From positions 22,230 to 54,229 of the forward strand of contig JAOUMJ010000020.1 of assembly GCA_029881495.1 (NCBI GenBank): DNA of 32,000 nt, given 5' to 3'. The position numbers and the translations under genes were made by a program. The notes beneath the pieces are model-generated. The model saw only the letters and a program-made list of their open reading frames with translations, did no database searches and was not told the origin of the DNA. Origin of the DNA: Nitrospinota bacterium. Lineage in GTDB: Bacteria > Nitrospinota_A > UBA7883 > JACRGQ01. This document shows positions 530 to 30,270 of this stretch, one piece after another (the stretch's first letter is position 1; each line of letters starts with the position of its first letter).

Positions 530-1125
530 GCGAAGCGAAAGAAGAGCTGATAATAAAAGATAGACGGCACTGGGTTCTTGAGGAAGCGAACGAAAAGAGC
601 CGGAATGATTCAGTCGTCGAGGCCGATATTGAACGTCTCCCTACATATGTGCAACAGCTACAACTTCAGGCCGAGGAGCACGACAAAAAACTCAAGGAGT
701 ATATTGCCGCGTACAAAGAGAAAATGGTCGAGAACGATCAGTTCAGGGCAAGGCTTGAGAAAGATGTCAATAGAAGGGTTGAGCAGGGGATAGGGAGCCT
801 GATGAAACAGATAGTGCCGGTGCTGGACAATCTTGATCTTGCCGTTGCCTCTGCGGATGGCGCGAAAGACGCGGAAAAGATGAGGGAGGGGCTAGTACTT
901 ATCAGGAATTCCATGGTAAATATTCTTAAGAATTCAGGTGTTATGGAAGTAGAGTGCATGGGAAAAACGTTTAATCCCGCCGTCGCGGAAGCTGTAGCCA
1001 GCGTTGCCGTTGAGAATGAGGATGAAGACAATATTGTAATCGAAGTGCTGCAATCTGGTTATATGCTGAACGAACTGCTGATCAGGCCTGCGCGCGTGAA
1101 AGTAGGAAAGTACGAAAAGCGATGA
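526..1125 (+). CDS. grpE: GrpE-like nucleotide exchange factor
   Basis: Long N-terminal coiled coil, '[12 protein letters not shown]', '[20 protein letters not shown]' and C-terminal '[18 protein letters not shown]', typical of GrpE; directly upstream of dnaJ with a 4-nt overlap. Confidence 0.9.
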
Positions 1126-3248: not shown

Positions 3249-4234
3249 TCGTGAAGACTCCTCAGGAACCTGTTACGCAAGATCCATTCGAAAAGAAGAG
3301 GGAAGAGCGCAAGCCCGGCGAGCCAAGTGAACTGTTCCGTATATTCATAATAGATATTGCTTTTCACTTCGGATTTTTCCAGGTGGTCGATCTCGTCATA
3401 TATCCCTGTAAGTTCCTTTTCGTTGCGAGCGGCATAATACCTGGCCCCTGTTTTAGACGCTATTTCGCGTAACAGCGCTTCGTCTATTTCACTTTTTACC
3501 GAAACTTTCCTTTTTCCGTATCGCGGATCGTCGATGGTTTGCTGAAAGATCCCTTCTCTGCCAACCCCGATCGTGTAGACTTTTATCTTCTCGGCAATCG
3601 CAAGCTCGGTCGCCGACCGCGGATCTATAAGCCCCCGGTTGTTCACGCCGTCCGTCAGGAGGATTATGATTTTGCTTGTCGCCTTTGAATCCCTCAGGCG
3701 GTTGATGCCGTTGGCGATCGCCATTCCGATCGCAGTGCCGTCCTCCAGAAGTCCGCTGTGAACCGGCGCGATGAAGGATCTGAGGACGTCGTAATCGAGG
3801 GTAAGCGGACATCTGGTGAAGCTGGTGCCGGCAAAGAGTATAAGCCCTATTCTGTCATTCACCCGGTTGCCGATGAATCTCGAAATTGCGTTTTTTGCGG
3901 CTTCCAGCCGAGAGGGCTGCATATCCATTATGTCCATGCTGGTCGACGTATCAAGGGCAAGATAGATATCGATACCCTCGCGGGTAATTTCCCGGTACCC
4001 CTGCCCGGTCTGCGGGCGCGCTATGGCGAAGATAAGGAGCAGTATCGCAAAGATTCTCAGCGTAAAAGGGAGAGGGCGCAGGCGCGTAATCCCGGATGGA
4101 GCTATCGCTTTTATCCTCCCGATGGAGGAGTACCGAATCCCGCTCTTCTTTGCTCTGAATCTCCTCCGGTACAGGATCGCCAGAAACGGGACCAATGCCA
4201 ATAAAAGCAGGAAGTAAGGGTGTGCAAATCTCAT
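3245..4234 (-). CDS. VWA-domain membrane protein, BatA-like
   Basis: N-terminal TMs ('LLALVPFLAILYRRRF'), MIDAS 'LALDTSTSMDIMD', 'IIILLTDGVNNRG', C-terminal TM; 4-nt overlap with downstream VWA gene. Confidence 0.82.
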   Translation of the reverse strand: MRFAHPYFLLLLALVPFLAILYRRRFRAKKSGIRYSSIGRIKAIAPSGITRLRPLPFTLRIFAILLLIFAIARPQTGQGYREITREGIDIYLALDTSTSMDIMDMQPSRLEAAKNAISRFIGNRVNDRIGLILFAGTSFTRCPLTLDYDVLRSFIAPVHSGLLEDGTAIGMAIANGINRLRDSKATSKIIILLTDGVNNRGLIDPRSATELAIAEKIKVYTIGVGREGIFQQTIDDPRYGKRKVSVKSEIDEALLREIASKTGARYYAARNEKELTGIYDEIDHLEKSEVKSNIYYEYTEQFTWLAGLALFPLLFEWILRNRFLRSLHE

Positions 4235-4955: not shown

Positions 4956-7900
4956 ATGGATGAGCGTCTTCACGTCTATCCCACACGCTTAAAGGTCGAG
5001 GAGGTCGAGGCCGAAAGGTATCGCTCAGCCGGGGCTGTTTTCAGCAAACACCTGATAAGCATTTTCGAATTGGAAGGTCGGCTCGCCCGCGACCTCGTGC
5101 CATATAATCCGATAAGCGAAGTCGAGAGATGGCTTCTCATCAATCAGTCGATAATTTCCGAAAAATCGCTCGGAAGGGATAGAGCGATGGCCCCCCTCAT
5201 ATCAAGTGACGGATTCGTAAGATCCGTTGGGGAATTGATCCAGCAGATAAAACTCGGTCTTGTCGATTCAGCCGATCTTGAAAAAATAAACGGGTTTGCC
5301 CCCGGCAAGGAGGGGTGGATAAAAAAGGTATTTGCCGCCTATCAAAAATTGCTTCGAACCGAGGGGCTTTACGATTCCGCGGATATCAGCATGGAGCTTG
5401 TCAAAAAACTCCATGACGGAGTGGCTCCTCCTGCATGGTTGAGGAGTTTCAGCGGAATTGATTTTTTCGATATCTATCACTACACACCTTTCCGTTTCGA
5501 AATGATTACCCGGCTTGCTGAAGTGGTAAATATAGTTGTTCATTTCCCGTTGCCGGATGAGAGGCGGAAGGCGTTTGATTTTGTGGAACGGGACATTCAG
5601 AAATTCCAGAGCCTGGCCGGTATGGAAGGGAAGCTTGAGCTTGCGTTTGATTCTCTCCCAGGAGACGATCCCGGGAATAAGAAAAAAACCGCGCTTGATA
5701 TCCTTGCAGGGCAGATATTCTCAGAAGAGGCGGGGGATGCCGAAGAGGAAATATCCGATAGCGTAGAGGTGGTAAAAAATTCCGGCAGATACCGGGAGAT
5801 AGAGGAAGTCGCCTCAAGGATAATGGATCTCAAGGAGAGCCGGAGGAGTTGGTCTGATTTCTGTCTTGTATTCCGCCAGACAGGGAGCTACGCGAATATA
5901 GTGGAAGATGTTTTCCGCCGCGCCGGGATACCTGTCTATATAAGACGCGGATTGCCCGTAAAGAACAATCTTCTTGTAAAGACGATTCTTGGAATTTTCA
6001 GGATAATCGAAACCGGGTATGACCGGGATGAAATAGTAAAACTTATGACTTCCGATTACTTCGATATCGGCCTCTCCCGTGAATTTGCGAGATATCTTGA
6101 AAAAATATTCATGGATGCCGGAATCATCAGCGGTCCTCCCTCCTTGCTGGAAAAGAAATGCGCCGCTTATTTGAAACGGGGCATTGAAATGGATGGTGTG
6201 CCGGTAGCGGCAGAAACAGTCGACGATATTTCCGCGGGACTAAAAAAGGTATTTTCCATACTGAAGGAAGTTGAAAAACTCTCCCGCGCATCGAAAGCGG
6301 GGGAGACCATAGCGATATTCAGGAAGCTGCTAAAAATATTTTCTCCCAGGGCGATCCAGTTCGGCTTCCCGTTCTTCACAAGAGACCTCTTCTGCAAGGG
6401 GAGGTTCTATGAAGTAGTGGAGGAAGCTGAAAATGCGGTCAAGGAGCATAAGCTGGGGGAGTCCCGCTTCGGATGGGGGGATCTAAGGAGGTTGCTTTTC
6501 AACTCGCTTGGAAACGCGGAGCTTCCCGAATGGTCTGAGAAGAATCATGTCTACGCGCTCAATATCCATGAGCTGGCAGGGAGGAGGTTCCCTTACATTT
6601 TTGTTTGCGGTCTGCACGACGGGGAGTTCCCGCTTAAATCGGAGCATGGGGCTGTGCTTTCAGAATCTGAAAAAAAGCTTTTCAATGAAAAACACTCTGA
6701 AACCGTCCTCGCCCGAATGGCCGAGAGGAAAATGGGGAGGCAGGTTTTCAGCAGGCTCGGAGAGACGTGGGACGAAGAATCTTTCCTCTTCTTTCTTGCC
6801 GTACGTTCCGCGAGGGAGAAAATATATTTTTCATACTCCACGCACGACCTGAACGGAAAGGAACTCGGCAAGTCGACCTTTCTTTACGATATAAAAACGG
6901 TCTTACCTGCGCTTGCCGAAACAGCGACGAGGTCTGTCGCGCTTGAGAAGGGATATTTCGAGCAGATAGACCACCCGGCGCGTGAGGCAAAGCTGTTGCG
7001 CGACATTTTCAATACGCCAGAGGAAAACGCCGGAGCGTTGGCTGATTACTACAGAAGCGTGGTTGGCCATCCGGTCACGGGAAAGAGTTTCATAAACTCG
7101 TGCGAAAGGAGCATGATAGAAAGGGAGCGGGACAAATTTTATTCGTCTGCCGAGCCTGACGTCCGGGCAAACGCGTCAAGCGTATATACCGGCAAGGTTG
7201 GGGAGATGCCATTGCTCTCGGGATACGTTGAGAAGGAAGCGCGGAAAGGATTTTCCGCAACCGCGATCGAGAGGTTTGCAAATTGCGCGTTTCGCTATTT
7301 CATGGACAGGCCGCTCCAGGTAAAGCCGCAGGAGCTGCCAAGGGCCGATATTGAAAGGACCGTGAAGGGGAGCATCGCGCATGAGATCCTAGAGATATAT
7401 TATGCGCCAAAGGGGAAATTCAAGGTTCGCTCATCTCTTGAGCCTCGAAATGCGAGGGAGAAAAGGTTGAACACCGTTGCCGAAAAGGTATTTGCAAAGT
7501 GGGAGAAGTCCGAACTGAAAGGGGAGCCTGCCATCTGGGAGATAACCAAGGAGCAGATAAGGAGGGCGCTCTCGCTTTATCTCCGCTCCGAAGAGACAGC
7601 GTTCGAAAAGGAGCCCTTCACTGTGGTGGCTACCGAATTGAAGTTCGGCCCGGATGAACCCTTCTCCGTATCATTAAAACTGCCGGGCGGGGAGATGTCT
7701 TTCAACGGCCTTATCGACAGGATTGATCTTCTGGACGCGAAAGGGATGCTGAGGGTAGTTGATTACAAATATTCGAGCAACACATCGAAGTTCTCAAAAT
7801 TGGTGAAGAGTGAAAAATATGGCGAAGAGAGTTTTCAGGTTCCTGTATATCTTCTCGCCGCGCTGAATTTGGCAGAAAGAAAGGAAGAGTTCTCCGAAAT

Positions 7901-8153
7901 CAAAACGGCGGTGGCAAGCTACATCACCTTGAAGAAGGAGCCGAAGGAATCGGCTGTATCGCCAACGGCCTCGCTGTCGTCGGGTGACGGCGATTTCTCC
8001 TTCGATAACGCGGAATTCCTCTCGAGGTTTGAGAATATCAGAACGAAGATGAATTCGGGCGATTTTTCCGTTACGCCGAAGGATTGTGTTTTTTGCAAAT
8101 ACCGAAGGGCATGCAGGTACAGAGAGGTTATGAGCGTTGAACTTGGAGAGTAG
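4956..8153 (+). CDS. AddB-like / PD-(D/E)XK-family nuclease of a RecBCD/AddAB-type complex
   Basis: C-terminal nuclease region 'SATAIERFANCAFRYF', 'GSIAHEILE', 'GLIDRIDLL...LRVVDYKYSSN' and cysteine cluster 'CVFCKYRRACRY' consistent with an AddB-type Fe-S cluster; immediately followed by an AddA-like gene. Confidence 0.8.
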   Translation: MDERLHVYPTRLKVEEVEAERYRSAGAVFSKHLISIFELEGRLARDLVPYNPISEVERWLLINQSIISEKSLGRDRAMAPLISSDGFVRSVGELIQQIKLGLVDSADLEKINGFAPGKEGWIKKVFAAYQKLLRTEGLYDSADISMELVKKLHDGVAPPAWLRSFSGIDFFDIYHYTPFRFEMITRLAEVVNIVVHFPLPDERRKAFDFVERDIQKFQSLAGMEGKLELAFDSLPGDDPGNKKKTALDILAGQIFSEEAGDAEEEISDSVEVVKNSGRYREIEEVASRIMDLKESRRSWSDFCLVFRQTGSYANIVEDVFRRAGIPVYIRRGLPVKNNLLVKTILGIFRIIETGYDRDEIVKLMTSDYFDIGLSREFARYLEKIFMDAGIISGPPSLLEKKCAAYLKRGIEMDGVPVAAETVDDISAGLKKVFSILKEVEKLSRASKAGETIAIFRKLLKIFSPRAIQFGFPFFTRDLFCKGRFYEVVEEAENAVKEHKLGESRFGWGDLRRLLFNSLGNAELPEWSEKNHVYALNIHELAGRRFPYIFVCGLHDGEFPLKSEHGAVLSESEKKLFNEKHSETVLARMAERKMGRQVFSRLGETWDEESFLFFLAVRSAREKIYFSYSTHDLNGKELGKSTFLYDIKTVLPALAETATRSVALEKGYFEQIDHPAREAKLLRDIFNTPEENAGALADYYRSVVGHPVTGKSFINSCERSMIERERDKFYSSAEPDVRANASSVYTGKVGEMPLLSGYVEKEARKGFSATAIERFANCAFRYFMDRPLQVKPQELPRADIERTVKGSIAHEILEIYYAPKGKFKVRSSLEPRNAREKRLNTVAEKVFAKWEKSELKGEPAIWEITKEQIRRALSLYLRSEETAFEKEPFTVVATELKFGPDEPFSVSLKLPGGEMSFNGLIDRIDLLDAKGMLRVVDYKYSSNTSKFSKLVKSEKYGEESFQVPVYLLAALNLAERKEEFSEIKTAVASYITLKKEPKESAVSPTASLSSGDGDFSFDNAEFLSRFENIRTKMNSGDFSVTPKDCVFCKYRRACRYREVMSVELGE

Positions 8154-11100
8154 CAGGGCAGAGGAGATAGTAGGGTTCGAAGGGGACACCTGCGTTCGCG
8201 CCTCGGCGGGGACGGGGAAGACCTTTATTCTCGTCGAGAAATTCATGCACATCCTGAAAGAGAAAACCGACGACAGTTATACGAAGATAGAAAATATCCT
8301 CGCGATAACCTTTACCGACAAAGCAGCGGAGGATATGCGGAAGAGGATAGGGGACAAAATATATGAAGAGGTGCGCGAGCTTGAAAAGCGGGAGAGAACA
8401 AAGGAAGAGGAAAAACTGCTAAGGCATCTTCGCACGGCAAGGAGGCTGTTGACGAAGGCGTACATCTCAACGATTCACTCCTTCTGCGCGAGGATATTAA
8501 GGGAGAATCCGCTGGAGGCAGGGATAGACCCGCAGTTTGAGATACTTGACGCGCAGAGGACTGGCGCGTTGCAGTCCAGATCGCTTGAACGTTTCCTTCT
8601 GGATAAACTGAGGAGAGGCGACAAGCCGGTTGCCGAACTTGCATACAGGTTCGGATTCGATTCGGATTTCGCGTTTGAGAGTTCGCTTTTCAGCCTCGTA
8701 TTGAGCCTCCTCCCTTTGATGAGAGCGGCGGGAGTAGATATTTTCTCCGAAAGGGCCTTGCTGTCCGAGTATTCGGAAAAGCTGGATGATGCTGAGAAAA
8801 TGCTTTCAGAACAAAAGAAGCAGTGTGCGTCCATTCTAAACGGGATGTCGGCTGAAATTTCAACCGAGAAACAGAAGGTGATAATGGAAATGCTTGTGAG
8901 TGGGATTTCCGCTCTTTCACCCTCAAGCGATATTGGGAATGAGGACACGCGGAAAAGCGTAAGCGGTATGAAATCTGCCATCAACCTGAATACCTTTAAA
9001 GGTAAAAAAGATGGCAATCTAAAGGCGCTGGCAACCGAGCTAAAAGAGACGCTGGAATTATATGAAATGACGGTTGTCTCTTCTCTCGCGCGTGAATCAG
9101 CCAGGCAGATAGCCGAGCTTGTCGGAGAGTTTTATCAGTACATGGAATCGTCCGTGAAGAACAGGGGCTTGCTTGATTTTGACGACTTGCAGGAGATGAC
9201 CCTCTGGCTTTTCAGGCGAAATGAAAGGATACTCGCGTATTACAGAAAAATGTTCCGCAATGTGCTGGTAGACGAGTTTCAGGATGTGAACGGTCTGCAG
9301 AAAATGATAGTGGAACAACTTGCCCCTCCCGGCGAAGGGAAACTTTTCGTGGTGGGGGACGTAAAGCAGGCGATATACGGATTTCGCGGGGGAGACCTTG
9401 AGGTGTTCGACGAAACCGAAAGAGCGATTGTAGAGAATGGCGGCGGGCTTTTCCGCCTGAATGTAAACAGGCGTTCAAATCCCGGTCTTGTGAAATTCGT
9501 GAACAGCTACTTCGGAAGATATGAGAAGAGCGTTTTCGACGCTGGTGATGAATGCGTATCTATGATGGATGAAACCGAAGTTTCGCCGGTGGAGTACTAT
9601 ACCTTCTCTGATGAAGAGAGCGCCGACAAGAGGCGGTTCAGCGAAGCAAATTTTATCGCGTCGCGAATAAACCGGCTGGTAGGTGAAAACAAGGCAAAGT
9701 TTTCCGACATGGCGATCCTTCTGCGAAAGTTTACCCCCCTCCCTATATACGAGGCCGCGCTTTCCCGGAATGGAGTGAGATACGCGGTACACAGGGGAAC
9801 AGGATTCTACAAGAGCCAGGAGGTGGCGGATCTTATTTCGATTCTCTCCTTCATTGATAATCCCGGCGACATAGTATCCTGGGTCGGCGCGGTGCGCTCC
9901 CCATACTGCGGATGTTCGGACAGGACCCTTTTCACGCTGAGGAGGGATGGTGAAGGAAAAACGGTCGAGCCGTACCGCCTCTTTTCAAGGGATGCCTATC
10001 TCCCCCCGCTTGATGAAGGGGAGGGGGAGAAATTCTCCGCCTTTGCGGAATGGGTCACTTTATTGATAAATCTGAAGGACAGGATGGCGGTATCGGAAAT
10101 AATCGAAACTGTTCTGGAAAAGAGCAGGATAACCGGCCTTCTTGGAGCGCAGAACGACGGTCTGCAAAAAGTTGCCAACGTGCTGAAGCTTATCGAAACC
10201 GCGAGGATGATGGAGCAGGAGCCGGGATTTACGCTGAAAAATTTCGTAAGGCACATCACGCGACTCTATGAACAGGAGGAGAGGGAATCCGAGGCAGTTG
10301 TCGTATCGGAAGAGGAGAATGCTGTAAAGATAATGACCGTGCATCAGAGCAAAGGGCTGGAATTCGGCATTGTATTCCTGCCGGACATTGGATCAAGCGG
10401 GAAGCGCGGAGGAGGATCGGCGATATTCCATAAGCGTAAAGGCTTGGCGGTAAAATATGTCGAGAAGGAAACCTTGTCATCCCATTCAGGGATCGTCTTT
10501 GAATCCACTAAGGAAGAGATAGAAGAAAAAGAGAAGAGCGACGCGAAGAGGCTTTTCTACGTCGGCTGTACCAGGGCGAAGGATATGCTGGTGCTTAGCG
10601 GATGCCCGGACCCGAAAAAGAAGAGGAGTGAAGCTTTGTCGGGCCTGGATGAATTGATGGAGCGCGAACCCTCCCTGTTCAATATCGTTTCCATACCCGT
10701 TGCAACTATGGAGGAGATAAGGGAACAGCGAACCCCATATGATGTATTGTCCGCCGGAGAAGAGCCGAAGAATACTGAATTGGGCAAAGGGGGCGAAGGG
10801 GTTGCGCCAATGGAACCCGCAGATGAAAGGAAAGAGGTCTTTGTCGATACAAGGAGCCTCGCCTCGTTCGCGAAATGTAAAAGGGAGTACATGCTTGGGA
10901 GATTGTACAGCGTGCCGGCAGAGAGGAGTTATCATGGCGGGCGCGGAGGGCGCAAGGGTGTTTACGAAGCGATGGAGATCGGCAACGCGATACACGCGAT
11001 TCTTGAAAAGCTCGATCTTGAGGTCCCGCAAGATGAAATGAGGACAGAAATTATCAAAATGGCGAAAAGGGAATTGCCTCTAGCATCAGAGGCGGAACTC

Positions 11101-11649
11101 CTGAAAGTTTCGCAAAAGCTGGAACGACTTTTTAAAACTCCGCTCTTTGAAAAAATTCGAAGCGGTGAAATGGAAGAAAAAGGGAGAGAGGTGCCGTTTA
11201 CTGCAAGATTCGGCAGGGATGGAGATGCATTTTTCCTCAAAGGGCAGGTCGATCTCCTGCTAAGGAGGGGCGAAACGGGGGTGATGATCGTCGATTACAA
11301 ATACGCTGTGAGGGGCGAAAGCGAGACGACTTATCGCTTTCAGGTGGAGGCGTACGCGGTTGCCGCGGAGCGCGTTCTCGGTGTCGAGGAGATCGTGTGC
11401 GCGATAGTCTATCTTGGCGGCGAAGAGCCGGAGTGTGTGGAATGGAAAATGGATACAGTGAAACTTCAAAAAGCTGAGGAGGCGATAACCGGTTCCATGA
11501 AAATGATTTCGGAGATGGAGAGGAGCCTTAGGGGAACTGAAGGGATACCCGACGCCGACTTTTCAAATATCCTTGGCGAGAGCGGAGCGGAAATAAAGTG
11601 TCCCGACGGAAACTGCGGCTATCATGCTGTCTGCTTCAGCGGTGAATAG
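8137..11649 (+). CDS. addA: UvrD/Rep-superfamily helicase with C-terminal nuclease, AddA-like
   Basis: Walker A 'ASAGTGKTFIL', 'AISTIHSFCARIL', Walker B 'LVDEFQDVNGLQ', 'FVVGDVKQAIYGFRGGD', 'KIMTVHQSKGLEF', 'RLFYVGCTRAKDMLVLS', nuclease motif 'GQVDLLLRR...MIVDYKYA'. TTG start overlaps the upstream gene. Confidence 0.87.
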   Translation: MNLESSRAEEIVGFEGDTCVRASAGTGKTFILVEKFMHILKEKTDDSYTKIENILAITFTDKAAEDMRKRIGDKIYEEVRELEKRERTKEEEKLLRHLRTARRLLTKAYISTIHSFCARILRENPLEAGIDPQFEILDAQRTGALQSRSLERFLLDKLRRGDKPVAELAYRFGFDSDFAFESSLFSLVLSLLPLMRAAGVDIFSERALLSEYSEKLDDAEKMLSEQKKQCASILNGMSAEISTEKQKVIMEMLVSGISALSPSSDIGNEDTRKSVSGMKSAINLNTFKGKKDGNLKALATELKETLELYEMTVVSSLARESARQIAELVGEFYQYMESSVKNRGLLDFDDLQEMTLWLFRRNERILAYYRKMFRNVLVDEFQDVNGLQKMIVEQLAPPGEGKLFVVGDVKQAIYGFRGGDLEVFDETERAIVENGGGLFRLNVNRRSNPGLVKFVNSYFGRYEKSVFDAGDECVSMMDETEVSPVEYYTFSDEESADKRRFSEANFIASRINRLVGENKAKFSDMAILLRKFTPLPIYEAALSRNGVRYAVHRGTGFYKSQEVADLISILSFIDNPGDIVSWVGAVRSPYCGCSDRTLFTLRRDGEGKTVEPYRLFSRDAYLPPLDEGEGEKFSAFAEWVTLLINLKDRMAVSEIIETVLEKSRITGLLGAQNDGLQKVANVLKLIETARMMEQEPGFTLKNFVRHITRLYEQEERESEAVVVSEEENAVKIMTVHQSKGLEFGIVFLPDIGSSGKRGGGSAIFHKRKGLAVKYVEKETLSSHSGIVFESTKEEIEEKEKSDAKRLFYVGCTRAKDMLVLSGCPDPKKKRSEALSGLDELMEREPSLFNIVSIPVATMEEIREQRTPYDVLSAGEEPKNTELGKGGEGVAPMEPADERKEVFVDTRSLASFAKCKREYMLGRLYSVPAERSYHGGRGGRKGVYEAMEIGNAIHAILEKLDLEVPQDEMRTEIIKMAKRELPLASEAELLKVSQKLERLFKTPLFEKIRSGEMEEKGREVPFTARFGRDGDAFFLKGQVDLLLRRGETGVMIVDYKYAVRGESETTYRFQVEAYAVAAERVLGVEEIVCAIVYLGGEEPECVEWKMDTVKLQKAEEAITGSMKMISEMERSLRGTEGIPDADFSNILGESGAEIKCPDGNCGYHAVCFSGE

Positions 11650-14851: not shown

Positions 14852-16987
14852 TCAGTAGCGGATCTCGGTCGGGTCGGAAGGGGCGGCCTTCTGCTGAGGG
14901 GTCTTGTCGAGGTCTTCCATGGAGAAGGCCCCGCTCTTGAGGAATCCGCGCACCCTTGTAACAACCGCGATCTTTGCCTGATCGACTTCCGCGACCGTAG
15001 CGTCCTTGGCAACGATCTTGTATTCGTCGCGCACTATCCTTCTTGCGTCCTCGTTGAGTGCCGAAAGTATCGCCGTCTGCACGTTCTTGTCGGACTGTAC
15101 AAGGGATTTGGCGATGGTGCTTCTCTCGAGATCCCTGATGGAATCCTTCAGCACGTTTCTCGGCACCTTCGGAATGTCGGTGAACGTGAAGTAGACCTTC
15201 TTTATCAGGTGGTATGTCTCCGGGTCCTCGGACTTGAGATGTTCGAGGAGCGTTGTCTGCGACGACATATCCATGAAGTCCATCATGCTGACCATGATGC
15301 CGACGCCATCGGCGGTAATGTTTTCAAGGCTTGGCACATCAATCGCCCGTCTGGCGATCCTCTGCGCAACCGGCTGGAAGGCGTTTATAGGTATGCTCTC
15401 GAATTTCGCCAGCTCGTACGCAATTGACGCCTGCTCTTCTATCGGAAGGTTTTTCAAAACCCCGGCCATCCTTTCCGGTGAAAGTTGCGAGAGAATGAGA
15501 GCCTTGACCTTTATCTCCTCCTCCTTGACGAGATAGGTTATTTGCGCTTCATCCAGATCGTTTAGGAAGCTGAACGGTTTTACTTTCTGCTTTTTGGCTC
15601 CGTGATCTTCCATCAGTATCTTTCTCATGGTGTCGTCGTGGAACCTCTCAAGGTACTGAACGGTTTCTTCCTCGCCGATCTCCTCTTCCTTCATGACGGT
15701 TTCTATCTCTATCAGCCTATCTACCGACAGCTCGCTGAAGATGCTCTTGCCGAGGTTGAAGCCGAGCACAGAGAAGAGGATGGCGGCCTTTTTCACGCCC
15801 TCACTGCTCTCAAGCTCTTCCTTTATCCTGCTGTTAAGGAGCCTCGGTTTGCCTACACCGAGGCTGACGATCTCCTGCTTGTACTGCTCTTTTTTCATCT
15901 GGAGCTTCAGGAGTTTTTTCTCCTCATCGATGAGCCCTCTCCTTTTCTCGGCTTCGCTTAGGGATTCTGATTTCTCCCTGGCTATTCTCTGCGCTTCGGC
16001 CATCTTTTCCTTTCTGAGTTTTCGCGCGGCGGACCAATTACGAAAAAAAATTCCGAATATGGTTACAAGCATCAGCAGAAGCATTATGCCAAGGAGCGCT
16101 ATGGCAAGATTTTCCCATTTCCTGTCGTCCATTGGAACTTTCTCTGCCGGGAAATCTATCTTTATGACTTCAAAGCCGTCCCCTCTGGTGACGTCCATGT
16201 CGAGCTTTTTGTAAACGAGGTTCTTAATGAATGATTCCTGCTCGCTCGTAATATTCCTGTCGACCATGAAGGTAACGAATATCTTCCTGATTATTTTTTC
16301 AATCTCCTGCTTCGTCTCCCGGACTGGAGGCGACTGAACCGGCATCGGCAAAACAGGCTGCTGTTGCTGAACAATCGTCGCGGCAGGCGGGATGAATGTC
16401 TCATCGGTAGTTACCGTCCTTTTCTGTCCCGGCGCTCTTCCTGTATCGTCTTCCATATCTTCATCGCCGAAGTCCGATCCGAGATCCGAAAAGGGGAGGC
16501 CCGGAAGTGTTTCGCCAAAATCGTCGCCTGACGCAAAGTCTCCTGAATCCTCCCTTGTCACTCTCCGTTTGATGAACCTGTTTTGCTGGAACTGCTGTTC
16601 CGGTGTGAGAACAGGCTGGAACTGGGTGACTGAAGTCTGCGGAGCCAAAGGCTGTTGCTGTATCTGCGATTGTTCCTGCGCAAGCGGCTGGGCTACCGGC
16701 TCCGGAGCCTTAGGAGCGATCGTCTCGGTTTTTGAGTCGAATATTTCAGCGTCGACCCTCAGGATGAAACGGGAATGACCAAGGTATGACGATATATCCC
16801 GGCTTAATCTCTCCTCGACCCGTTTTTCAAAAACAATTCCGCCGAGTTTGTCTTCTTCGAGTGTGGTTTTTACTTCATCCTGGGCCAGGGTGATTCCGGT
16901 CGAGGTGAGAAAGAATACAAGCGCACTGAAGAGGAAGAGCCCCCTTCCGTTCACCCATCTATTTTTCATAATCGTCATATTTTCCAT
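14852..16987 (-). CDS. FliF(C-terminal half)-FliG-like chimeric membrane rotor protein
   Basis: 711 aa. Signal/TM near the N-terminus; FliF-like split segments 'YLGHSRFILRVDAEIFDSKTE' (aa ~68-88) and 'IFVTFMVDRNITSEQESFIKNLVYKKLDMDVTRGDGFEVIKIDFP' (aa ~236-280); TM 'NLAIALLGIMLLLMLVTIFGIFF' (aa ~293-315); FliG-like N/M/C region aa ~393-690 ('GVKKAAILFSVLGFNLGKSIFSELS', 'KALILSQLSPERMAGVLKNLP', 'DPETYHLIKKVYFTFTDI', 'RDEYKIV...EVDQAKIAVVTRVRGFLKSGAF'). Confidence 0.8.
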   Translation of the reverse strand: MENMTIMKNRWVNGRGLFLFSALVFFLTSTGITLAQDEVKTTLEEDKLGGIVFEKRVEERLSRDISSYLGHSRFILRVDAEIFDSKTETIAPKAPEPVAQPLAQEQSQIQQQPLAPQTSVTQFQPVLTPEQQFQQNRFIKRRVTREDSGDFASGDDFGETLPGLPFSDLGSDFGDEDMEDDTGRAPGQKRTVTTDETFIPPAATIVQQQQPVLPMPVQSPPVRETKQEIEKIIRKIFVTFMVDRNITSEQESFIKNLVYKKLDMDVTRGDGFEVIKIDFPAEKVPMDDRKWENLAIALLGIMLLLMLVTIFGIFFRNWSAARKLRKEKMAEAQRIAREKSESLSEAEKRRGLIDEEKKLLKLQMKKEQYKQEIVSLGVGKPRLLNSRIKEELESSEGVKKAAILFSVLGFNLGKSIFSELSVDRLIEIETVMKEEEIGEEETVQYLERFHDDTMRKILMEDHGAKKQKVKPFSFLNDLDEAQITYLVKEEEIKVKALILSQLSPERMAGVLKNLPIEEQASIAYELAKFESIPINAFQPVAQRIARRAIDVPSLENITADGVGIMVSMMDFMDMSSQTTLLEHLKSEDPETYHLIKKVYFTFTDIPKVPRNVLKDSIRDLERSTIAKSLVQSDKNVQTAILSALNEDARRIVRDEYKIVAKDATVAEVDQAKIAVVTRVRGFLKSGAFSMEDLDKTPQQKAAPSDPTEIRY

Positions 16988-16994
16988 TTTACCA

Positions 16995-17669
16995 TTACCG
17001 GTGTATTTTAATTACCACTCTGCGGTTCTGCATTTGATTTTCCGCAATAGCGTTTCCAAGTTCATCCCTGTTTGGAGCCTTGGGCGCGATGTCGGCAAAC
17101 CCGGAAGCCTGCAGTCTCTTTTTTTCAATACCGAATTCGATAAGCATGCGGAGCACGTTTGTAGCCCTCGCGGTCGAGAGCTCCCAGTTGGAGGGGTATT
17201 TCACAGTATTGATAGGAACGTCGTCCGTATGCCCCTCCACCGAGACCTTGTGGTCGTCGTATGAGATCACTTTCAGCGATTTGGCTACCTTGTCGATGAT
17301 CGGTCTCGCGGTATCCATTATCTCCGCGTCGCCGGACAAAAAGAGGGCGGCGCTGGAGAATTCCAGCTTTATACCCTGTGCGGAGAGGTCGACCATTATT
17401 TCCTTTTCCAGGTTTTCCTGTTTAATCATCTTGTCCAGCTCGTTTTTCAGTTCATGGAACGGTTTTGTAACCTTCTTTTTGCTAACCGATTCAATAAGTC
17501 CGGCTTTGACCTCTTCATACTTTGAAGCATCTACTACCGATATCGCGGCAAGGAGAATGAAGAAGGCGAGGAGCAGGGTGACCATGTCCGAATAGGTGGT
17601 CATCCATGTTCCTTCCTCCGATTCTTCGGATCTCCTTCTTCCGGGAGAGCCGCTCTTGTTGAAAGCCAT
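16995..17669 (-). CDS. motB: MotB-type stator protein with OmpA-like peptidoglycan-binding domain
   Basis: 'TWMTTYSDMVTLLLAFFILLAA' (Asp in the plug/TM motif YxDMxTLLLxFF), C-terminal 'VSVEGHTDDVPI...NWELSTARATNVLRMLIEFGIEKKRLQASGFAD...QNRRVVI'. MotB-like; the symbol reflects family, not proven flagellar role. Confidence 0.9.
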   Translation of the reverse strand: MAFNKSGSPGRRRSEESEEGTWMTTYSDMVTLLLAFFILLAAISVVDASKYEEVKAGLIESVSKKKVTKPFHELKNELDKMIKQENLEKEIMVDLSAQGIKLEFSSAALFLSGDAEIMDTARPIIDKVAKSLKVISYDDHKVSVEGHTDDVPINTVKYPSNWELSTARATNVLRMLIEFGIEKKRLQASGFADIAPKAPNRDELGNAIAENQMQNRRVVIKIHR

Positions 17670-17694: not shown

Positions 17695-18474
17695 TTACCT
17701 GCCGCTTTTCTTTCTGCTGAACCGCTTTTTTGGCTCAATGAAAGAGTTGAGTTTGTTTTCAACGAATATGGGGTGCTGTTTTTCCGCCAGTAGGAGTATC
17801 CCGTTCATCTGTATTACTCTCACCAGCACCTCGTAATCGGTTCTTCGCCTTATTTTTTCCGCTATCGGCATGAACAGCAGGTTCGACAGGAGGGTTCCGT
17901 ACAACGTCGTAGTAAGGGCTATCGCAAGTGCGGGCCCTATTGTAGAAGGGTCTTCCCCCATCTGCTGAAGCATGATTATAAGGCCTACGAGGGTACCGAT
18001 CATCCCAAAGGCAGGCGCGTACGATGCCATAACCTTGAACATGCTGTACTGCCCCTGCTGGGCGTCCACCATCCCTTCTATCATGTTTTCCAGGTTGGCC
18101 TTGATCTCATCTCTCTTGTACCCGTTGATAAGGAGCATGAGACCGTCCTTTTCAAATGAATTTTTAAGCTTGAGAGCTTCGTCCTCTATCGCGGAGAGCC
18201 CCTTGCTCTTTATGATCTCCGCCCACCGCGCAAACCTCGGAACAAGGTTTGTGTATGTGGTGTCATGCGACATGAATATCTTGTATACCGACAGGAACGA
18301 GCGTTTGACGTCCTCGTAGGGGAACGCGATGAATGTCGAGGCAACCGTTCCCCCAAGGACAATCGCGAAGCCCGGCATATTTACAAATACCAGGTACTCT
18401 TTCGTACTGCTTACGATAGCGGCGACGAATATCGCGATACCGGCAATAAGTCCGATCAAGGTTGATATTGACAT
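17695..18474 (-). CDS. motA: MotA-type stator/proton channel protein
   Basis: Four TM segments, 'PGFAIVLGGTVASTFIAFP', 'YAPAFGMIGTLVGLIIMLQQMGEDPSTIGPALAIALTTTLYGTLLSNLLFMPIAEKI'. MotA/PomA family. Confidence 0.93.
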   Translation of the reverse strand: MSISTLIGLIAGIAIFVAAIVSSTKEYLVFVNMPGFAIVLGGTVASTFIAFPYEDVKRSFLSVYKIFMSHDTTYTNLVPRFARWAEIIKSKGLSAIEDEALKLKNSFEKDGLMLLINGYKRDEIKANLENMIEGMVDAQQGQYSMFKVMASYAPAFGMIGTLVGLIIMLQQMGEDPSTIGPALAIALTTTLYGTLLSNLLFMPIAEKIRRRTDYEVLVRVIQMNGILLLAEKQHPIFVENKLNSFIEPKKRFSRKKSGR

Positions 18475-18475
18475 A

Positions 18476-19153
18476 TCAGTACCCCATTTCCTCTAGTTTG
18501 CGTCTTACGTCATTCATGGAAGGGTCGTGCTGAAGCGCCGCTTGCCACGATTGAACCGCCAGATCGAGCTTCTTCATCCTGTAAAAGATGGAGCCTTTCA
18601 GCGCGTGCGCGTAGGCATAGTCGGGGGCTATCAGCAGGGCCTTGTTCACTTCCTTCAAGGCGAGCGTGTACCGCTTCTTATAGAACTGTCTCTGCGCCTT
18701 GTTCAGATGGTTACTTGCCCTGTTGAAAGGGGATTGCGCCTCCGACGGCTCGCCGGGGGAAATCGCTACATCCTCCTCCGGAATGTCCATCTGCACAAAT
18801 ACGTTCTCATCGCCGGGGTCGATGTTCATCACGATGTCGTAACTTCTCCCCTTTCGCCTTATCTGCACGGTTTGGGGCGAGCGCGTGGCAAGAGTATCAT
18901 CTGCCGCCGCCCCTTGTTCGTTTGCTCCGTTCCTCTGCGGCTCGAGATTTATCGGCAGGTCGCCGGTATCCTCTCCCTTGCGGGCGGCCTCTTCCCTGGC
19001 CGCCTGTTTCACCATATCCTTTGTAGAGGAGCAGGCTGTAAGGGGGGAGAATGCAAATAGCAATATGGAGGCGGGGAGGATAACATGGGCCATAACCGCC
19101 CTTGCCAAGTTTGACCGCCATACAGTTTTCATCATTTCAATCACCTTGTTCAT
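18476..19153 (-). CDS. Lipoprotein with TPR-like repeats
   Basis: Signal sequence ending in a lipobox 'SPLTAC|SSTK'; helical repeats 'RASNHLNKAQRQFYKKRYTLALKEVNKALLIAPDYAYAHALKGSIFYRMKKLDLAVQSWQAALQHDPSM'-type pattern. Confidence 0.8.
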   Translation of the reverse strand: MNKVIEMMKTVWRSNLARAVMAHVILPASILLFAFSPLTACSSTKDMVKQAAREEAARKGEDTGDLPINLEPQRNGANEQGAAADDTLATRSPQTVQIRRKGRSYDIVMNIDPGDENVFVQMDIPEEDVAISPGEPSEAQSPFNRASNHLNKAQRQFYKKRYTLALKEVNKALLIAPDYAYAHALKGSIFYRMKKLDLAVQSWQAALQHDPSMNDVRRKLEEMGY

Positions 19154-20470
19154 TTAAAAAACAAATCCGATACCGACTTCATACGTCGTTCCGCCAAAAT
19201 TGATATGCGATTCGAAATCGCCGATAGGCACCAGTTCGATCCTCTTTTCAGGGATATTCACAAATCCCAGAGAGAAGGAAAAGCGCTCGCTGAATCTAAG
19301 GGTCAGGCCGCTCTTATAGATTTCGGTGTGGTGTTTCATGAACAGCGCCTCGCCAAGGGAGACGTAGTAGTTCCATGTGGAGAAATATTCCTTCCGCAGA
19401 TTTTTTTCATCTACCGGCTCGTATCCCTCACCGGAGAAGAATATCTTGTCGAGCTTTAGGATAAGGTGCCCGTAAAATGCCCCTCCCGCAATGTCGAAGA
19501 ACTCGGGCCTTACGATATTGGCGAAATAATCGAGCCCAACGCCGTATATGATATGTTTGGAGTTCTTCGATTCTCTCAATACCTTGAGGCTAAGAGTAGC
19601 CACCTTGTCGAGATGCTCTGCTGGGAGAGTGGCGGACTTTCTCTCATATTTGTAGCCCCATATGCCGGTCTCCAGAGCAACTTCGTACGGGCGGAGTTCC
19701 TTTTCCTCTTCGATCTCCTCAAAGATGTCCTGGAACTTTCTCGCCCATACGACCTCCCCTGTCTTTGCGTCTACGACCTTGAAATTGAGAAACAGCTTGT
19801 CGTTTTCAACATATACGTTCCAGAGGAAAAAGCCGTCGACCTTTATGTTCTTTGCAATTTCCGCGAGCCGCTGGTTCGATTCCACGGCCCTCAGGATGGT
19901 GAACGTGTTCTCCTTGAGGATGAGCTGGGTCGATTTGCACTCCATGCATTCGAATATCTGGAACCTGCCGGTTTCAAGAAGTTTGCGTGTTAGCCCGTTC
20001 TCGATAAGCTCGTATATCTTCGCTGGCAGCATTTTGTTCTGCTTGTCGGCGTTCCGGTAAAGGGCGATCTTGTTCACGCGCGGACTGATAGATAAAAGTT
20101 CCTCTTTCGAGAAATTCATCGCCATGATAAGCGTCTGAACACGTTCGTAGAGATTCGGGTTTCGCGTCTGCTCAAAGGCCTCACCTGTGAGGAGGCTTTT
20201 TACCGGCTGTCTGTTCCCAGGCTGCGGTGTTGTCCCGGGGAGAGGCGCGGTATCGTCGAATACGGTTTCATCCTGCGGAAGCTCAAGTGGCTCACCATCC
20301 GGTGGAAGCTCGTCTTCAGGCGGCAGTTCTATACTCTTCACCGGTTGAAAGTCGGGTGATGCACCCGCCGGAGGCTCCTGCGCGTATGACAGATTGGCCA
20401 CTAAAAGCGCAAACAATATCGCTGACAACCAGGTATATCTACCCAGATGCAAAACTTTGACGTATTTCAT
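19154..20470 (-). CDS. Secreted outer-membrane-associated protein with CsgG/FlgO-like middle domain and probable beta-rich C-terminus
   Basis: Signal peptide 'YTWLSAILFALLVANLSYAQ'; Pro/Glu-rich linker; 'ELIENGLTRKLLETGRFQIFECMECKST...LAEIAKNIKVDGFFLWNVYVENDKLFLNFKVVDAKTGEVVWARKF'; C-terminal alternating strands 'SGLTLRFSERFSFSLGFVNIPEKRIELVPIGDFESHINFGGTTYEVGIGFVF' ending in Phe. 1-nt gap to the next gene. Confidence 0.6.
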   Translation of the reverse strand: MKYVKVLHLGRYTWLSAILFALLVANLSYAQEPPAGASPDFQPVKSIELPPEDELPPDGEPLELPQDETVFDDTAPLPGTTPQPGNRQPVKSLLTGEAFEQTRNPNLYERVQTLIMAMNFSKEELLSISPRVNKIALYRNADKQNKMLPAKIYELIENGLTRKLLETGRFQIFECMECKSTQLILKENTFTILRAVESNQRLAEIAKNIKVDGFFLWNVYVENDKLFLNFKVVDAKTGEVVWARKFQDIFEEIEEEKELRPYEVALETGIWGYKYERKSATLPAEHLDKVATLSLKVLRESKNSKHIIYGVGLDYFANIVRPEFFDIAGGAFYGHLILKLDKIFFSGEGYEPVDEKNLRKEYFSTWNYYVSLGEALFMKHHTEIYKSGLTLRFSERFSFSLGFVNIPEKRIELVPIGDFESHINFGGTTYEVGIGFVF

Positions 20471-20762
20471 TCATTTATCCCTTCTTGCGTCAAAAAGTAT
20501 GCAGTAATCATTCCAATATTTGAAAATCCCGGAAAAATAACCACATAGAGAGAGGGGAGCGTTAAAAAATTGACGTAAATTCCCTTTTTTACGTAGGAAA
20601 CTTGCTCCAGTTTTATCTCCTTAAAAGAAGCGAGGAGGTGGTGACAATCTCTACAAAAGCGAATTTTCCAAAATTGTGAGGCCAACCTACAAAAAATGTA
20701 GGATATATTTCTCCCTAAACTGAGCATCTTTCTCCCTTTGGTTTGAATGAAACGTAACATAT

Positions 20763-20768
20763 TATAGC
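20763..20768 (-). promoter_or_regulatory. Possible extended -10 element upstream of the motor operon
   Basis: Minus strand reads TTGCTATAATATG (TGnTATAAT). No good -35; about 300 nt upstream of the 20470 start. Confidence 0.35.
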
Positions 20769-21052
20769 AACAAAAGAGCCTTCTCCGCACCCGGCTTCTG
20801 GAAGCCGTTTTCACCCGGTTTGTCGCGATCTTTTCCGAATTTGCCATAGCTGAATAAAGTCTCCCTATAAGCGAGCCCTCGCTGTTCTTTCAAGTCGATG
20901 AGCGAAAATTGCTCTCAACAGCTAGTATACTATTACTGGTAAACAGCGCATTCATGGCAATGAAAATTTGCCCGGGATCTGGAGAAACCGAGTAAATAGA
21001 TCTTTCGTTCTGGAAAATTGAAATTTAACAATTCGAAGAGGGGGGTGGCAAA

Positions 21053-28365: not shown

Positions 28366-30270
28366 TTATTTCTTTTCGGCGTCTTCGAATTCGGCGTCGA
28401 CGACGTTATCCTTGTTGCCTCCAGCGGCTCCGCCAGAAGCGGAGTCCCCATCGGTTGGCGCTCCCGCGGCGGCGGTCTTGTAGATCTCTTCCGCCATCTT
28501 GTGCGCCTTCTCCTTGAGGCTCTCCATTACCGATTTCATCTTCTCGATGTCGTCCGACTCCATCGCGGATTTCAGTTCGGCAATGCCGTCCTCCACCGGC
28601 TTCTTAACCGCATCCGGCAGTTTGTCGCCGTTTTCCTTGAGGGTCTTTTCGGTCTGGAAAATTAGCGAATCGGCCGTGTTGCGCACGTCGACCTTTTCCC
28701 GTTTTTTCTTGTCCTCCTCCGCGTGGGATTCGGCGTCCTTAACCATCTGGCTCACTTCGTCATCGGAAAGGCCGGTGCTCGATGTGATGGTGATCTTCTG
28801 CTCCTTGCCTGTACCCTTATCCTTGGCGGAGACATGGGCTATTCCGTTAGCGTCGATATCGAAAGTCACTTCGATCTGCGGAATTCCGCGAGGCGCCGCC
28901 GGTATCCCTTCCAGGTGGAACCTTCCAAGCGTCCTGTTATCGGAGGCCATTTCGCGTTCACCCTGGAGAACATGTATCTCCACAGATGTCTGGCTGTCTG
29001 CCGCGGTTGAAAATACCTCGCTTTTCCTGGTCGGGATAGTCGAGTTTCTCTCTATCAGTTTCGTCATGACGCCGCCGAGGGTTTCGATGCCGAGCGATAG
29101 CGGGGTAACGTCCAAAAGAAGGATGTCCTTCACGTCTCCCGCGAGTACGCCCGCCTGAACAGCCGCGCCGAGGGCAACGACTTCATCCGGGTTCACACCT
29201 TTGTGTGGCTCCTTGCCGAAGTATTCCTTCACGAGGTTGGAGATTTTCGGAACTCTTGTGGAACCACCCACAAGAACGGCTTCCTTGATGTCGCTGGGTG
29301 AAAGGGATGCGTCAGCCAGGGCCTTTTTGAGCGGCCCGAGTGTTCTGGTTATCAGGCTGTCTACCATCCTCTCGAACTGCGCCCTTGAAAGTTTCATGTT
29401 CATATGCTTCGGGCCCGACTGGTCAGCAGTGATAAAAGGGAGATTGATGTCGGTTTCGGTCACGGTGGAGAGTTCCATCTTCGCCTTTTCAGCCGCCTCG
29501 CGCAGTCTCTGCAGGGCCATGGCATCCTTGGAGAGGTCGATACCCTGGTCCTTTTTAAACTCCGCTATCAGCCAGTCGATGATCTTCTGATCCAGGTTGT
29601 CACCCCCCAGGTGGGTGTCGCCATTGGTCGATTTAACCTCGACGACGTTATCTCCTACCTCAAGGACGGAGATATCGAACGTACCACCGCCGAAGTCGTA
29701 TACGGCGATCATTTCATCAGATTTTTTATCAAGGCCGTAGGCGAGCGCCGCGGCTGTCGGTTCGTTGATTATTCTTTTTACTTCGAGACCAGCTATCTTT
29801 CCCGCGTCTTTGGTCGCCTGTCTCTGCGCGTCGTTGAAGTAGGCCGGCACGGTGATAACCGCTTCGGTTACTTTTTCGCCGAGGTACGCTTCCGCCGACT
29901 GTTTCAGCTTGCGAAGGATCATTGCCGATATCTCCTCCGGCGTATGTTCCTTCTTGCCGACTTTTATGACAACCCCAGTTCCGCCCGAAGCTTCCTTCAC
30001 TTCATAAGGAACCATTTTCGCCTCTTCGGTTACTTCGCTGTAATGGCGACCCATAAACCTTTTTATCGAATAAATGGTGTTATGCGGATTCGTAACCGCC
30101 TGGCGTTTGGCCACCTGCCCGACGAGTGTTTCTCCATCTTTTGTAAAGGCCACAACTGATGGAGTAGTCCTGGAACCCTCCTCGTTCACTATGACCCTTG
30201 GCTCTCCACCTTCCATAACGGCTACGACGGAGTTGGTCGTACCGAGGTCGATTCCTACAATTTTACCCAT
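28366..30270 (-). CDS. dnaK: Chaperone protein DnaK (Hsp70)
   Basis: '[22 protein letters not shown]', '[12 protein letters not shown]', '[14 protein letters not shown]', '[17 protein letters not shown]'; RBS GGAGG upstream. Confidence 0.99.

Follow-up and report, generated by a model that had tools for sequence, protein, structure and literature searches.

A natural FliF-FliG fusion encoded beside MotAB-type stator genes, a candidate rotor of a motor outside the flagellum

The window analysed here is a stretch of 32,000 nucleotides (nt) of contig JAOUMJ010000020.1 from a Nitrospinota bacterium. It contains an open reading frame (ORF) of 711 amino acid residues (aa) in which the part of the flagellar MS-ring protein FliF that runs from RBM3 to the C-terminus is fused to FliG, and the gene lies in an operon with genes for a MotA/MotB-type stator. 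On balance, we think it probable that the fusion is the rotor subunit of a free-standing, ion-driven motor of flagellar type, which is not part of a flagellum and is coupled to periplasmic or outer-membrane partners. Fused proteins of this kind were found to be widespread, and one of them is encoded in the motAB2 cluster of Bdellovibrio bacteriovorus.

Domain organization of the fusion protein

In order along the 711 residues come a signal-like segment, RBM3 with a disordered insert, one transmembrane (TM) helix, a FliG-binding helix and the N-terminal, middle and C-terminal domains of FliG (FliG_N, FliG_M and FliG_C). The features are as follows, with the confidence of the structure model given as predicted local distance difference test (pLDDT) values.

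14852..16987 (-): fusion ORF, FliF (RBM3 to C-terminus) joined to FliG; 711 aa, ATG start, frame uninterrupted
16883..16945 (-): N-terminal hydrophobic segment, aa 15-35; signal peptide (possible cleavage between TLA and QDE) or equivalent of FliF TM1; helix 15-29 in the model
16715..16861 (-): first half of RBM3 (alpha1-beta1), aa 43-91, 'FEKRVEERLSRDISSYLGHSRFILRVDAEI'; pLDDT 84-97
16319..16714 (-): disordered insert rich in Q, P and acidic residues, aa 92-223; pLDDT <50; at the position of the FliF beta-collar loop
16493..16507 (-): LPGLP motif, aa 161-165; nearly invariant, positional counterpart of GG[VI]PG of canonical FliF
16148..16318 (-): second half of RBM3 (beta2-alpha2-beta3) with RGD motif, aa 224-280; pLDDT ~96; aligned with 6scn_A
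16043..16108 (-): TM helix, aa 294-315, equivalent of FliF TM2 by alignment; within the continuous model helix 292-379
15800..15892 (-): counterpart of the FliG-binding helix at the C-terminus of FliF, aa 366-396, 'EIVSLGVGKPRLLNSRIKEELESSE'; pLDDT 93-97
15593..15799 (-): FliG_N, aa 397-465; profile alignment to full-length FliG 3hjl from residue 12
15323..15580 (-): FliG_M, aa 470-555; Pfam FliG_M 1.1e-11 (aa 481-552)
14906..15310 (-): FliG_C, aa 560-694; Pfam FliG_C 5.6e-17 (aa 582-688), aligned with 1lkv
15002..15058 (-): torque helix, aa 644-662, inside FliG_C

When the single sequence was compared with Pfam, YscJ_FliF_C appeared below threshold (E=0.022, 15.6 bits against a cut-off of 23.8; aa 223-279, covering the last 60 profile positions). 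At this level the FliG half appeared certain and the FliF half a hint. A profile of the N-terminal ~330 family positions matched Salmonella FliF (6scn_A) at 5.6e-8 over FliF residues 358-558, which comprise RBM3b, TM2 and the C-terminus. With the same profile, matches of about 1e-11 to 1e-14 were also obtained to the C-terminal halves of canonical FliFs (508-549 aa), and a significant precomputed PF08345 hit is on record for the homologues P0015 and P0122. Among PDB sequences the profile gave no match to SctJ, PrgK or SpoIIIAG chains, the RBM proteins of injectisomes and sporulation. In a MAFFT alignment, four canonical FliFs and members of the family were collinear throughout, up to the start of FliG_N, with alpha1-beta1, GG[VI]PG versus LPG[LM]P, beta2-alpha2-beta3 including RGD, TM2 and the C-terminal helix paired with one another. 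The first half of RBM3 aligns with canonical FliF 'YEKDLERKVNQMLAKVLG..ASVNAELNF', and the peptide VTFMVDRNIT...RGDGFEVIKIDFP aligns with FliF '..LSVAVVVN...DKRGDTLNVVNSPF'.

RBM1 and RBM2, which in FliF form the inner M-ring and house the export gate, are absent from the fusion: in the alignments and in the model just ~10-20 residues separate the signal-like segment from alpha1 of RBM3. The Bdellovibrio homologues have a classical signal peptide, with AQA before the cleavage site and Q after it. The insert that splits RBM3 differs in length among the homologues in the family alignments, and its LPGLP motif is retained at P162 in 79/79 sequences, at G163 in 78/79 and at L161 in 73/79. G269 and D270 of the RGD motif are kept in 77/79 members.

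The two halves are joined head-to-tail, the final helix of canonical FliF ending where FliG_N begins (aa ~397). Residues 366-396 are the predicted equivalent of the FliF helix that co-folds with FliG_N: canonical FliFs align here with their last ~25 residues ('VFELANKNPENVAKIIKKWLSEE'), and Salmonella FliF with residues 530-558. For the FliG half, the whole-family profile matched the PDB sequences of T. maritima FliG MC (1lkv) at 3e-33 and of Aquifex full-length FliG (3hjl) at 1.6e-29 over residues 12-327; Salmonella FliF was among its matches as well. The score against the NCBIfam equivalog TIGR00207 for FliG was 78.8 bits, and 44.1 bits for the Bdellovibrio HD100 homologue, both below the cut-off of 226.7. 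The FliM-binding EHPQ motif is missing; the window protein reads EEEI at this place, and only the Glu (E490) is kept, in 73/79 family members. In the torque helix the charges are largely retained across the 79 members, K/R standing at the position of E. coli R281 in 72/79 and E/D at that of D289 in 58/79. The corresponding charged residues of the window protein are D647, R649/R650 and D654/E655.

Structure model of the fusion protein

An AlphaFold2 model was built from the alignment of 79 sequences. Its mean pLDDT was 78.5, with folded parts at 90-98. The periplasmic part has the topology of a split RBM (alpha 47-69, beta 74-91, disordered 92-223, beta 224-243, alpha 248-261, beta 271-277) and is followed by one long helix, 292-379, which includes the TM segment, and then by the helical FliG domains to residue 694. 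In the model the insert is bordered by strands of 18-20 residues, which may represent a short remnant of a collar-like hairpin. As shown by Foldseek against PDB, the top matches were full-length FliG structures (3hjl at 1e-9; Salmonella 8umx_B with 330 aligned columns; range 324-330), followed by RBM3/S-ring structures of FliF (7bk0_B at 6.7e-3, 6sd3_Q and 8z4d_1), with a probability of 1.0.

A preliminary description of this stretch, made before these comparisons, had proposed that a single 711-aa ORF carries a FliF RBM3-like segment, a TM helix after it and a FliG-like N/M/C region. The profiles, the AlphaFold model, Foldseek and the collinear alignment all bear out this joining of the C-terminal half of FliF to FliG. 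The peptide it had quoted as RBM3-like aligns with FliF in the way proposed, both in 6scn_A and in the canonical FliFs, and the TM helix falls on FliF TM2 within the long model helix. It had named the loss of a significant FliF-C match, or of a FliG match over aa 393-690, as grounds for giving up the idea. The former match was obtained with the family profile (5.6e-8) together with the fold; the latter is highly significant by Pfam (FliG_C 5.6e-17), by the profile against 3hjl (1.6e-29) and by Foldseek. The folds modelled for the two halves are those of FliF RBM3 and full-length FliG. The description had also asked whether two genes had been merged in assembly and whether the same domain order occurs elsewhere. 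The answers, no to the first and yes to the second, are given in the following section.

Distribution of the fusion and exclusion of an artefact

Eleven proteins with the same layout, 596-711 aa long, came from a word-indexed search. The order in the family alignment was a signal-like N-terminus, alpha-beta, the insert with LPGLP, beta-alpha-beta to RGD...F-P, TM helix and charged linker, and FliG; LPG[LM]P, RGD and PFxFL are the invariant motifs. An exhaustive search of 1.8 billion representatives with the N-part profile found 1067 proteins at E<=1e-3 and 157 at <=1e-10. Both the FliF-like and the FliG part were present in 122 of the 158 sequences examined, so that the domain order recurs widely, and a few short FliF-like proteins were unfused. 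The family is thus widespread and is not unique to the genome of the window. A scan of species-representative genomes for the Bdellovibrio-type subfamily gave 21 loci, all from Bdellovibrionota, with closed B. bacteriovorus genomes among them. The close subfamily of the window protein had no relative among GTDB species genomes.

The NCBI record of the same metagenome-assembled genome (MAG) starts the protein at Met7 (705 aa, MDH5543169.1, 'hypothetical protein OEY64_09420 [Nitrospinota bacterium]'). Look-ups with the neighbouring 438-aa protein X and with Dxs likewise point to a Nitrospinota MAG. Three contigs, assembled independently and 7, 54 and 362 kb long, encode near-identical fused proteins. 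Cultured strains of B. bacteriovorus with closed genomes have the fusion too, HD100 for example as CAE80783.1 / WP_011165387.1 of 577 aa. The HD100 homologue is labelled 'FliG protein' or 'FliG C-terminal domain-containing protein' in databases, and other family members are also labelled 'hypothetical'.

Two members of the family depart from the single fused gene. In the locus L035 (8001-10503) the rotor is split: a 525-aa short FliF-like protein (PF08345) and a 324-aa FliG have genes of their own, which overlap by 50 nt and directly follow motA-motB and three TPR genes. In L037 (6725-10334) a 422-aa unfused short FliF-like gene, with RBM3 and TM helix, lies immediately 5' of the fusion, as a tandem paralogue. 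The split, overlapping pair in the lineage of L035 is what could be cited for the view that the fusion is an artefact of assembly or gene calling which merged two adjacent genes, a view to which we give practically no weight: the frame is uninterrupted, and an assembly chimera is excluded because independent assemblies, complete Bdellovibrio genomes such as HD100 and >100 protein clusters (formed at 50% identity) all contain the fused ORF.

The stator genes and the operon

The fusion gene is the last of five minus-strand genes separated by gaps of 0-25 nt, in the order X, TPR lipoprotein, MotA, MotB and fusion. The four other genes are as follows.

19154..20470 (-): X, secreted protein of 438 aa; no Pfam family, LpoB/PelC/CsgG-like domain
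18476..19153 (-): TPR lipoprotein of 225 aa, lipobox LTAC; Pfam TPR_1/TPR_2
17695..18474 (-): MotA/PomA-like stator A protein of 259 aa; Pfam MotA_ExbB 7e-24
16995..17669 (-): MotB-like stator B protein of 224 aa; MotB_plug 1.1e-17, OmpA 1.6e-15

The stator proteins have the features of flagellar-type stators, namely four TM helices and a large, charged cytoplasmic interface in MotA and, in MotB, a plug, a TM helix with Asp ('TYSDMVTLL') and an OmpA-like peptidoglycan-binding domain; the NCBIfam equivalog cut-offs were not reached, the MotD, MotS and MotB scores of the MotB-like protein all lying under the cut-off. The window MotA matched PomA (8brd) over its full length (residues 1-251) at 3.7e-41, with K88, E96 and D97 at the positions of PomA R88, E96 and E97.

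Flanks of homologous loci were examined in L001-L003, L007, L008, L030 and L033-L037. MotA and MotB adjoin the fusion in the window, L001, L002, L003, L007/L030, L033, L034, L035 and L036, and stand beside it in 7 of 10 Bdellovibrionota loci; in the other three the contig ends on that side or the flank is short. When nine loci were compared, the ion-binding (proton-binding) Asp of MotB was kept in all nine, MotA was basic at PomA R88 in about 6/9 and acidic at E96 in about 7/9, and the torque helix of the fusion retained the charge at R281 in 8/9 and at D289 in 9/9. The module recurs in very divergent family members, and its gene order varies. It is MotB, MotA / TPR, X, TPR-like protein, fusion in L001; fusion, X-like, TPR, MotA, MotB in L003; X, TPR, fusion, MotA, MotB in L033 and L034; and fusion, MotA, MotB in L036. 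In L002 and the Bdellovibrio loci (L007, L030 and others) it is MotA, MotB, small beta-barrel, TPR/PEGA lipoprotein, small beta-barrel, a helical 325-aa protein and the fusion. In the Bdellovibrionales MAG of L007 (1-8746), FG-GAP/fibronectin-III proteins of 1179 and 1550 aa, possible surface proteins, adjoin the cluster on the opposite strand.

Homologues of the TPR lipoprotein were found in the window, L001, L003, L007/L030, L033, L034 and L037, and its C-terminal pair of TPR repeats is conserved in all cluster types. X is encoded next to the fusion in the window, and homologues of it hold that place in L001, L034 and L033; the similarity in L003 is marginal. The N-terminal region of X is rich in Pro and Glu, its alpha/beta domain contains a conserved CxxC, and its C-terminal half, predicted to be all-beta, ends in Phe. 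Outer-membrane barrels often end in Phe, and the C-terminal half of X may tentatively be regarded as such a barrel. Pfam gave sub-threshold hints of CsgG, FlgO (0.041) and FlgT_M (0.17). In the structural comparison the N-domain, the better-predicted part of a weak model, matched LpoB at 7.5e-4 and PelC, a ring-forming protein, at 0.028.

No other flagellar genes (type III export, rod, hook, FliM/FliN) were found in the 32-kb window or in the flanks of L001-L003, L007, L030 and L033-L037. The preliminary description had presented the fusion as a strong candidate for an uncharacterised rotor architecture. The fusion itself stands; its setting is not a flagellar locus but a self-contained operon without other flagellar genes. 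A separate machine is likelier than an odd flagellum because the fusion has an operon with its own MotAB and has neither RBM1/RBM2 nor EHPQ.

Downstream of the operon lie xseB-ispA-dxs. A promoter/terminator scan, which performed no better than chance, showed no minus-strand terminator, and the window had no match in Rfam. The ~580 nt upstream of the operon (window 20467..21050), which have no Rfam match, are probably a non-coding leader or promoter, because the ORF there, of 126 aa (20467..20847, minus strand), looks spurious, with odd composition and no family.

The motAB2 cluster of Bdellovibrio bacteriovorus

L030 is the HD100-identical genome CP160490.1, in which the fusion locus lies at 2,903,451-2,925,184 and the cluster occupies L030 5036-11734. 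The cluster consists of seven genes, of which the first are motAB2 and the last is the FliF-FliG fusion, placed in HD100 at about 2.9135-2.9152 Mb. Its MotA and MotB genes at 2,920,149-2,918,378 are Bd3021/Bd3020, listed as 'motAB2' at 2920190-2918347 (Table S5 of PMC11323537). MotAB2 has been counted among three stators of the single Bdellovibrio flagellum (PMC11323537). In the same work, quantitative reverse transcription PCR gave bd3021/bd3020 transcript levels for fliL mutants in axenic growth that exceeded those of attack-phase cells, which swim, 289-639-fold (Table S6 of PMC11323537). In a bacterial two-hybrid assay FliL (Bd1076) interacted with MotB3 and not with MotA2 or MotB2 (PMC11323537), and mutations in fliL and motA3 switch the lifestyle of Bdellovibrio (PMC11323537). 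Epibiotic predators lack motAB1 and motAB2 and keep motAB3 (PMC11870529). The expression of motAB2 is not that expected of a dedicated swimming stator; it fits another job without proving one.

We also considered whether the fusion cluster corresponds to Bd0148-Bd0150 next to motAB1, transposon-hit genes with a predation defect (PMC6561027). This was rejected, as the coordinates place the cluster at motAB2, and the Bd0145 primer sequences did not map either. None of the genes Bd3014-Bd302x appears in the supplementary text consulted for that predation screen (PMC6561027).

Other features of the window

On the plus strand, 4956..11649 holds a helicase-nuclease pair of AddB/AddA type, whose large genes overlap and encode 1065 and 1170 aa with PD-(D/E)XK nuclease and UvrD helicase domains. 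Tandem BatA-N/von Willebrand factor A proteins of 328 and 329 aa are encoded at 2262..4234 (-). The genes grpE and dnaJ are adjacent at 526..2228 (+), and dnaK lies 26 kb off on the other strand, at 28366..30270 (-). The last part of the window (31001..32000) has a G+C content of 0.375, versus about 0.50 elsewhere.

A proposed filament-less motor

The proposal builds on the domain identities, the order of the fusion, the breadth of the family, the conservation of the operon and the conserved key residues of stator and rotor, all described above. In the proposed motor, the N-terminal part of the fusion would be exported and the protein anchored by its one TM helix. The periplasmic RBM3 would oligomerise into an S-ring-like ring, as it does in FliF. 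FliG, covalently linked to it, would make up a second ring in the cytoplasm with the same number of subunits, and the torque helix of FliG would be exposed. Stators of PomA/MotB type, encoded upstream in the operon, would be held to the peptidoglycan by the OmpA-like domain of MotB. Ions would pass by way of the conserved Asp of MotB, and the stators would push the torque helix of FliG_C so that the ring turns. With no export gate, rod or FliM/FliN, no filament would be built or turned, and the ring would probably not be switchable by CheY.

The ring may transmit its work by way of the invariant LPG[LM]P loop, which occupies the place of the collar loop in FliF. In flagella the collar loop (GG[VI]PG) holds or contacts the rod. 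LPG[LM]P is proposed as the coupler because, of the periplasmic features beyond the RBM core, it is the only one that is strictly conserved, and it lies at the collar-loop position. Likely partners of the loop would be the co-conserved TPR lipoprotein and the secreted, beta-rich LpoB/PelC-like protein at the outer membrane. The whole would be a trans-envelope device powered by ions, whose output may be surface movement, envelope remodelling or export.

Several points weigh against this interpretation. The ring formation and rotation of the fusion are inferred from homology only; the loop partners, the coupling and the output are inferred as well, and no output structure was identified. The model of X is of low confidence (pLDDT 46). 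L008 and L037 have no MotAB within 6-10 kb of the fusion. In the torque helix of the window protein, Asp stands at the R281-equivalent position (aa 647, 15047..15049) and Arg follows 2-3 residues later, which may be a register shift or a rearrangement of charge at the stator interface of this subfamily. In the alignment, MotA2 of HD100 lacks the acidic pair at PomA E96/E97. Finally, Bdellovibrio is flagellated, and MotAB2 has been assigned to its flagellum in the literature.

Alternative interpretations

The fusion could form a ring that does not rotate, a static platform on which MotAB-type channels dock and are activated, so that regulated ion flow or mechanical load would make it a signalling or envelope-stress device. 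MotAB stators are known to be activated (unplugged) on docking to the flagellar rotor, and MotB keeps its plug here. The charge pattern of the interface differs among lineages. A signalling role of stators is also suggested by the fliL and motA3 mutations that switch lifestyle (PMC11323537). This reading we hold to be unlikely, since the torque-helix signature and the PomA-like interface are kept in most members, which is hard to explain without transmission of force. Moreover, 5:2 stators rotate upon ion flow, and such rotation would drive a bound ring unless the ring were held fixed.

Slightly less likely again, in our judgement, is an accessory role in an ordinary flagellum, in which the module would be an alternative or additional rotor-stator set that joins the basal body or exchanges with it. 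All its parts are of flagellar type (FliF, FliG and a PomA-like MotA), and B. bacteriovorus has both a canonical flagellum and the cluster, with MotAB2 listed as a flagellar stator (PMC11323537). However, the fusion lacks RBM1/RBM2, which would house the export gate, and lacks EHPQ; no flagellar gene adjoins it in any locus examined, and the module brings its own TPR lipoprotein and outer-membrane-type proteins. The strong induction of motAB2 in non-swimming axenic growth and the two-hybrid result, negative for FliL Bd1076 with MotA2/MotB2 and positive with MotB3, also speak against it (PMC11323537).

That the module is a decaying remnant of a lost flagellum with no present function is very improbable: the truncated FliF part without RBM1/RBM2 and NCBIfam scores far under the equivalog cut-offs would fit decay, but the ORF is intact, >100 divergent clusters share the architecture and the invariant motifs, non-flagellar partner genes are co-conserved and the domains fold with high confidence. 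The proposal of an autonomous motor is compared below with systems already known.

Comparison with known systems

The module is built from the FliG, FliF (RBM3 only) and MotAB superfamilies, and it differs from the canonical proteins in its equivalog scores, in EHPQ, in RBM1/RBM2 and in gene context. With the flagellar rotor of FliF, FliG and MotAB/PomAB it shares RBM3, TM2, the FliG-binding helix, the N, M and C domains of FliG, a charged torque helix and a stator pair. Unlike the flagellar rotor, it is a single polypeptide without RBM1/RBM2 and EHPQ, it has no export, rod, hook or FliM/FliN genes nearby, and in their stead it is accompanied by a TPR lipoprotein and a secreted LpoB/PelC-like protein. 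A variable disordered insert takes the place of the flagellar FliF collar loop, with LPG[LM]P as all that is kept.

Head-to-tail joining of the FliF C-terminus to the FliG N-terminus is also seen in engineered or spontaneous fusions of Salmonella and Vibrio alginolyticus (8z4d/8z4g; PMC10941966, PMC11481574), and the family profile spans the junction of the Vibrio fusion 8z4d (E=1.2e-27). Cells with Salmonella FliF-FliG fusions are flagellated and motile, and a Vibrio FliFG fusion forms MS-rings efficiently (PMC10941966). A fused rotor would thus be workable, because these fusions form rings and those of Salmonella support motility. They differ in being laboratory constructs with full-length FliF (about 580 aa) in a complete flagellum, whereas the present fusion is natural and conserved, has a truncated FliF and lacks flagellar surroundings. 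In full-text searches of the literature only engineered FliF-FliG fusions were found, with no account of the present family.

Elaborate flagellar motors contain the TPR proteins PflA/PflB in Campylobacter and Helicobacter and the H-ring of FlgO/FlgP/FlgT in Vibrio. As in these scaffolds, a TPR protein and a protein of CsgG/FlgO/LpoB fold accompany a PomAB-type stator here; unlike in them, the rotor is without an axle, and there is no significant sequence match to PflA/B, FlgO or FlgT. In combining an inner-membrane, ion-driven stator with periplasmic or outer-membrane partners, the module resembles ExbBD-TonB, TolQR-TolA, AglRQS-Glt, GldLM and ZorAB. It is distinguished from those 5:2 motors by FliG/FliF as the driven element, and by a MotA that is flagellar and PomA-like, with a large cytoplasmic interface. 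Neither Zorya nor another known defence system was indicated: PADLOC gave generic hits of MotB to ZorB, and no ZorA, ZorC or ZorD.

To our knowledge, FliG and FliF are known solely as flagellar parts. Tentatively, and with doubt slightly outweighing confidence, we suggest that the family represents an autonomous, filament-less FliF(RBM3)-FliG and MotAB engine, widespread in Nitrospinota, Bdellovibrionota and many uncultured bacterial lineages, which would turn a periplasmic or outer-membrane assembly of TPR lipoprotein and LpoB/PelC-like protein. No FliG/FliF rotor outside flagella would precede it, and it would be either an exaptation of the flagellar motor or a relative of the rotor-stator core from the time before its union with a type III secretion system.

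Implications

Whatever its output, the fusion would offer a simplified natural rotor in one polypeptide for structural work and for single-molecule torque measurements. If the proposal is true, the rotor-stator core would be separable, and the evolutionary assembly of the flagellar motor would become directly testable. The module would then also stand for an envelope-spanning, ion-driven cellular function of a new kind. In that case MotAB2 of B. bacteriovorus, a genetically tractable organism, would need to be read anew.

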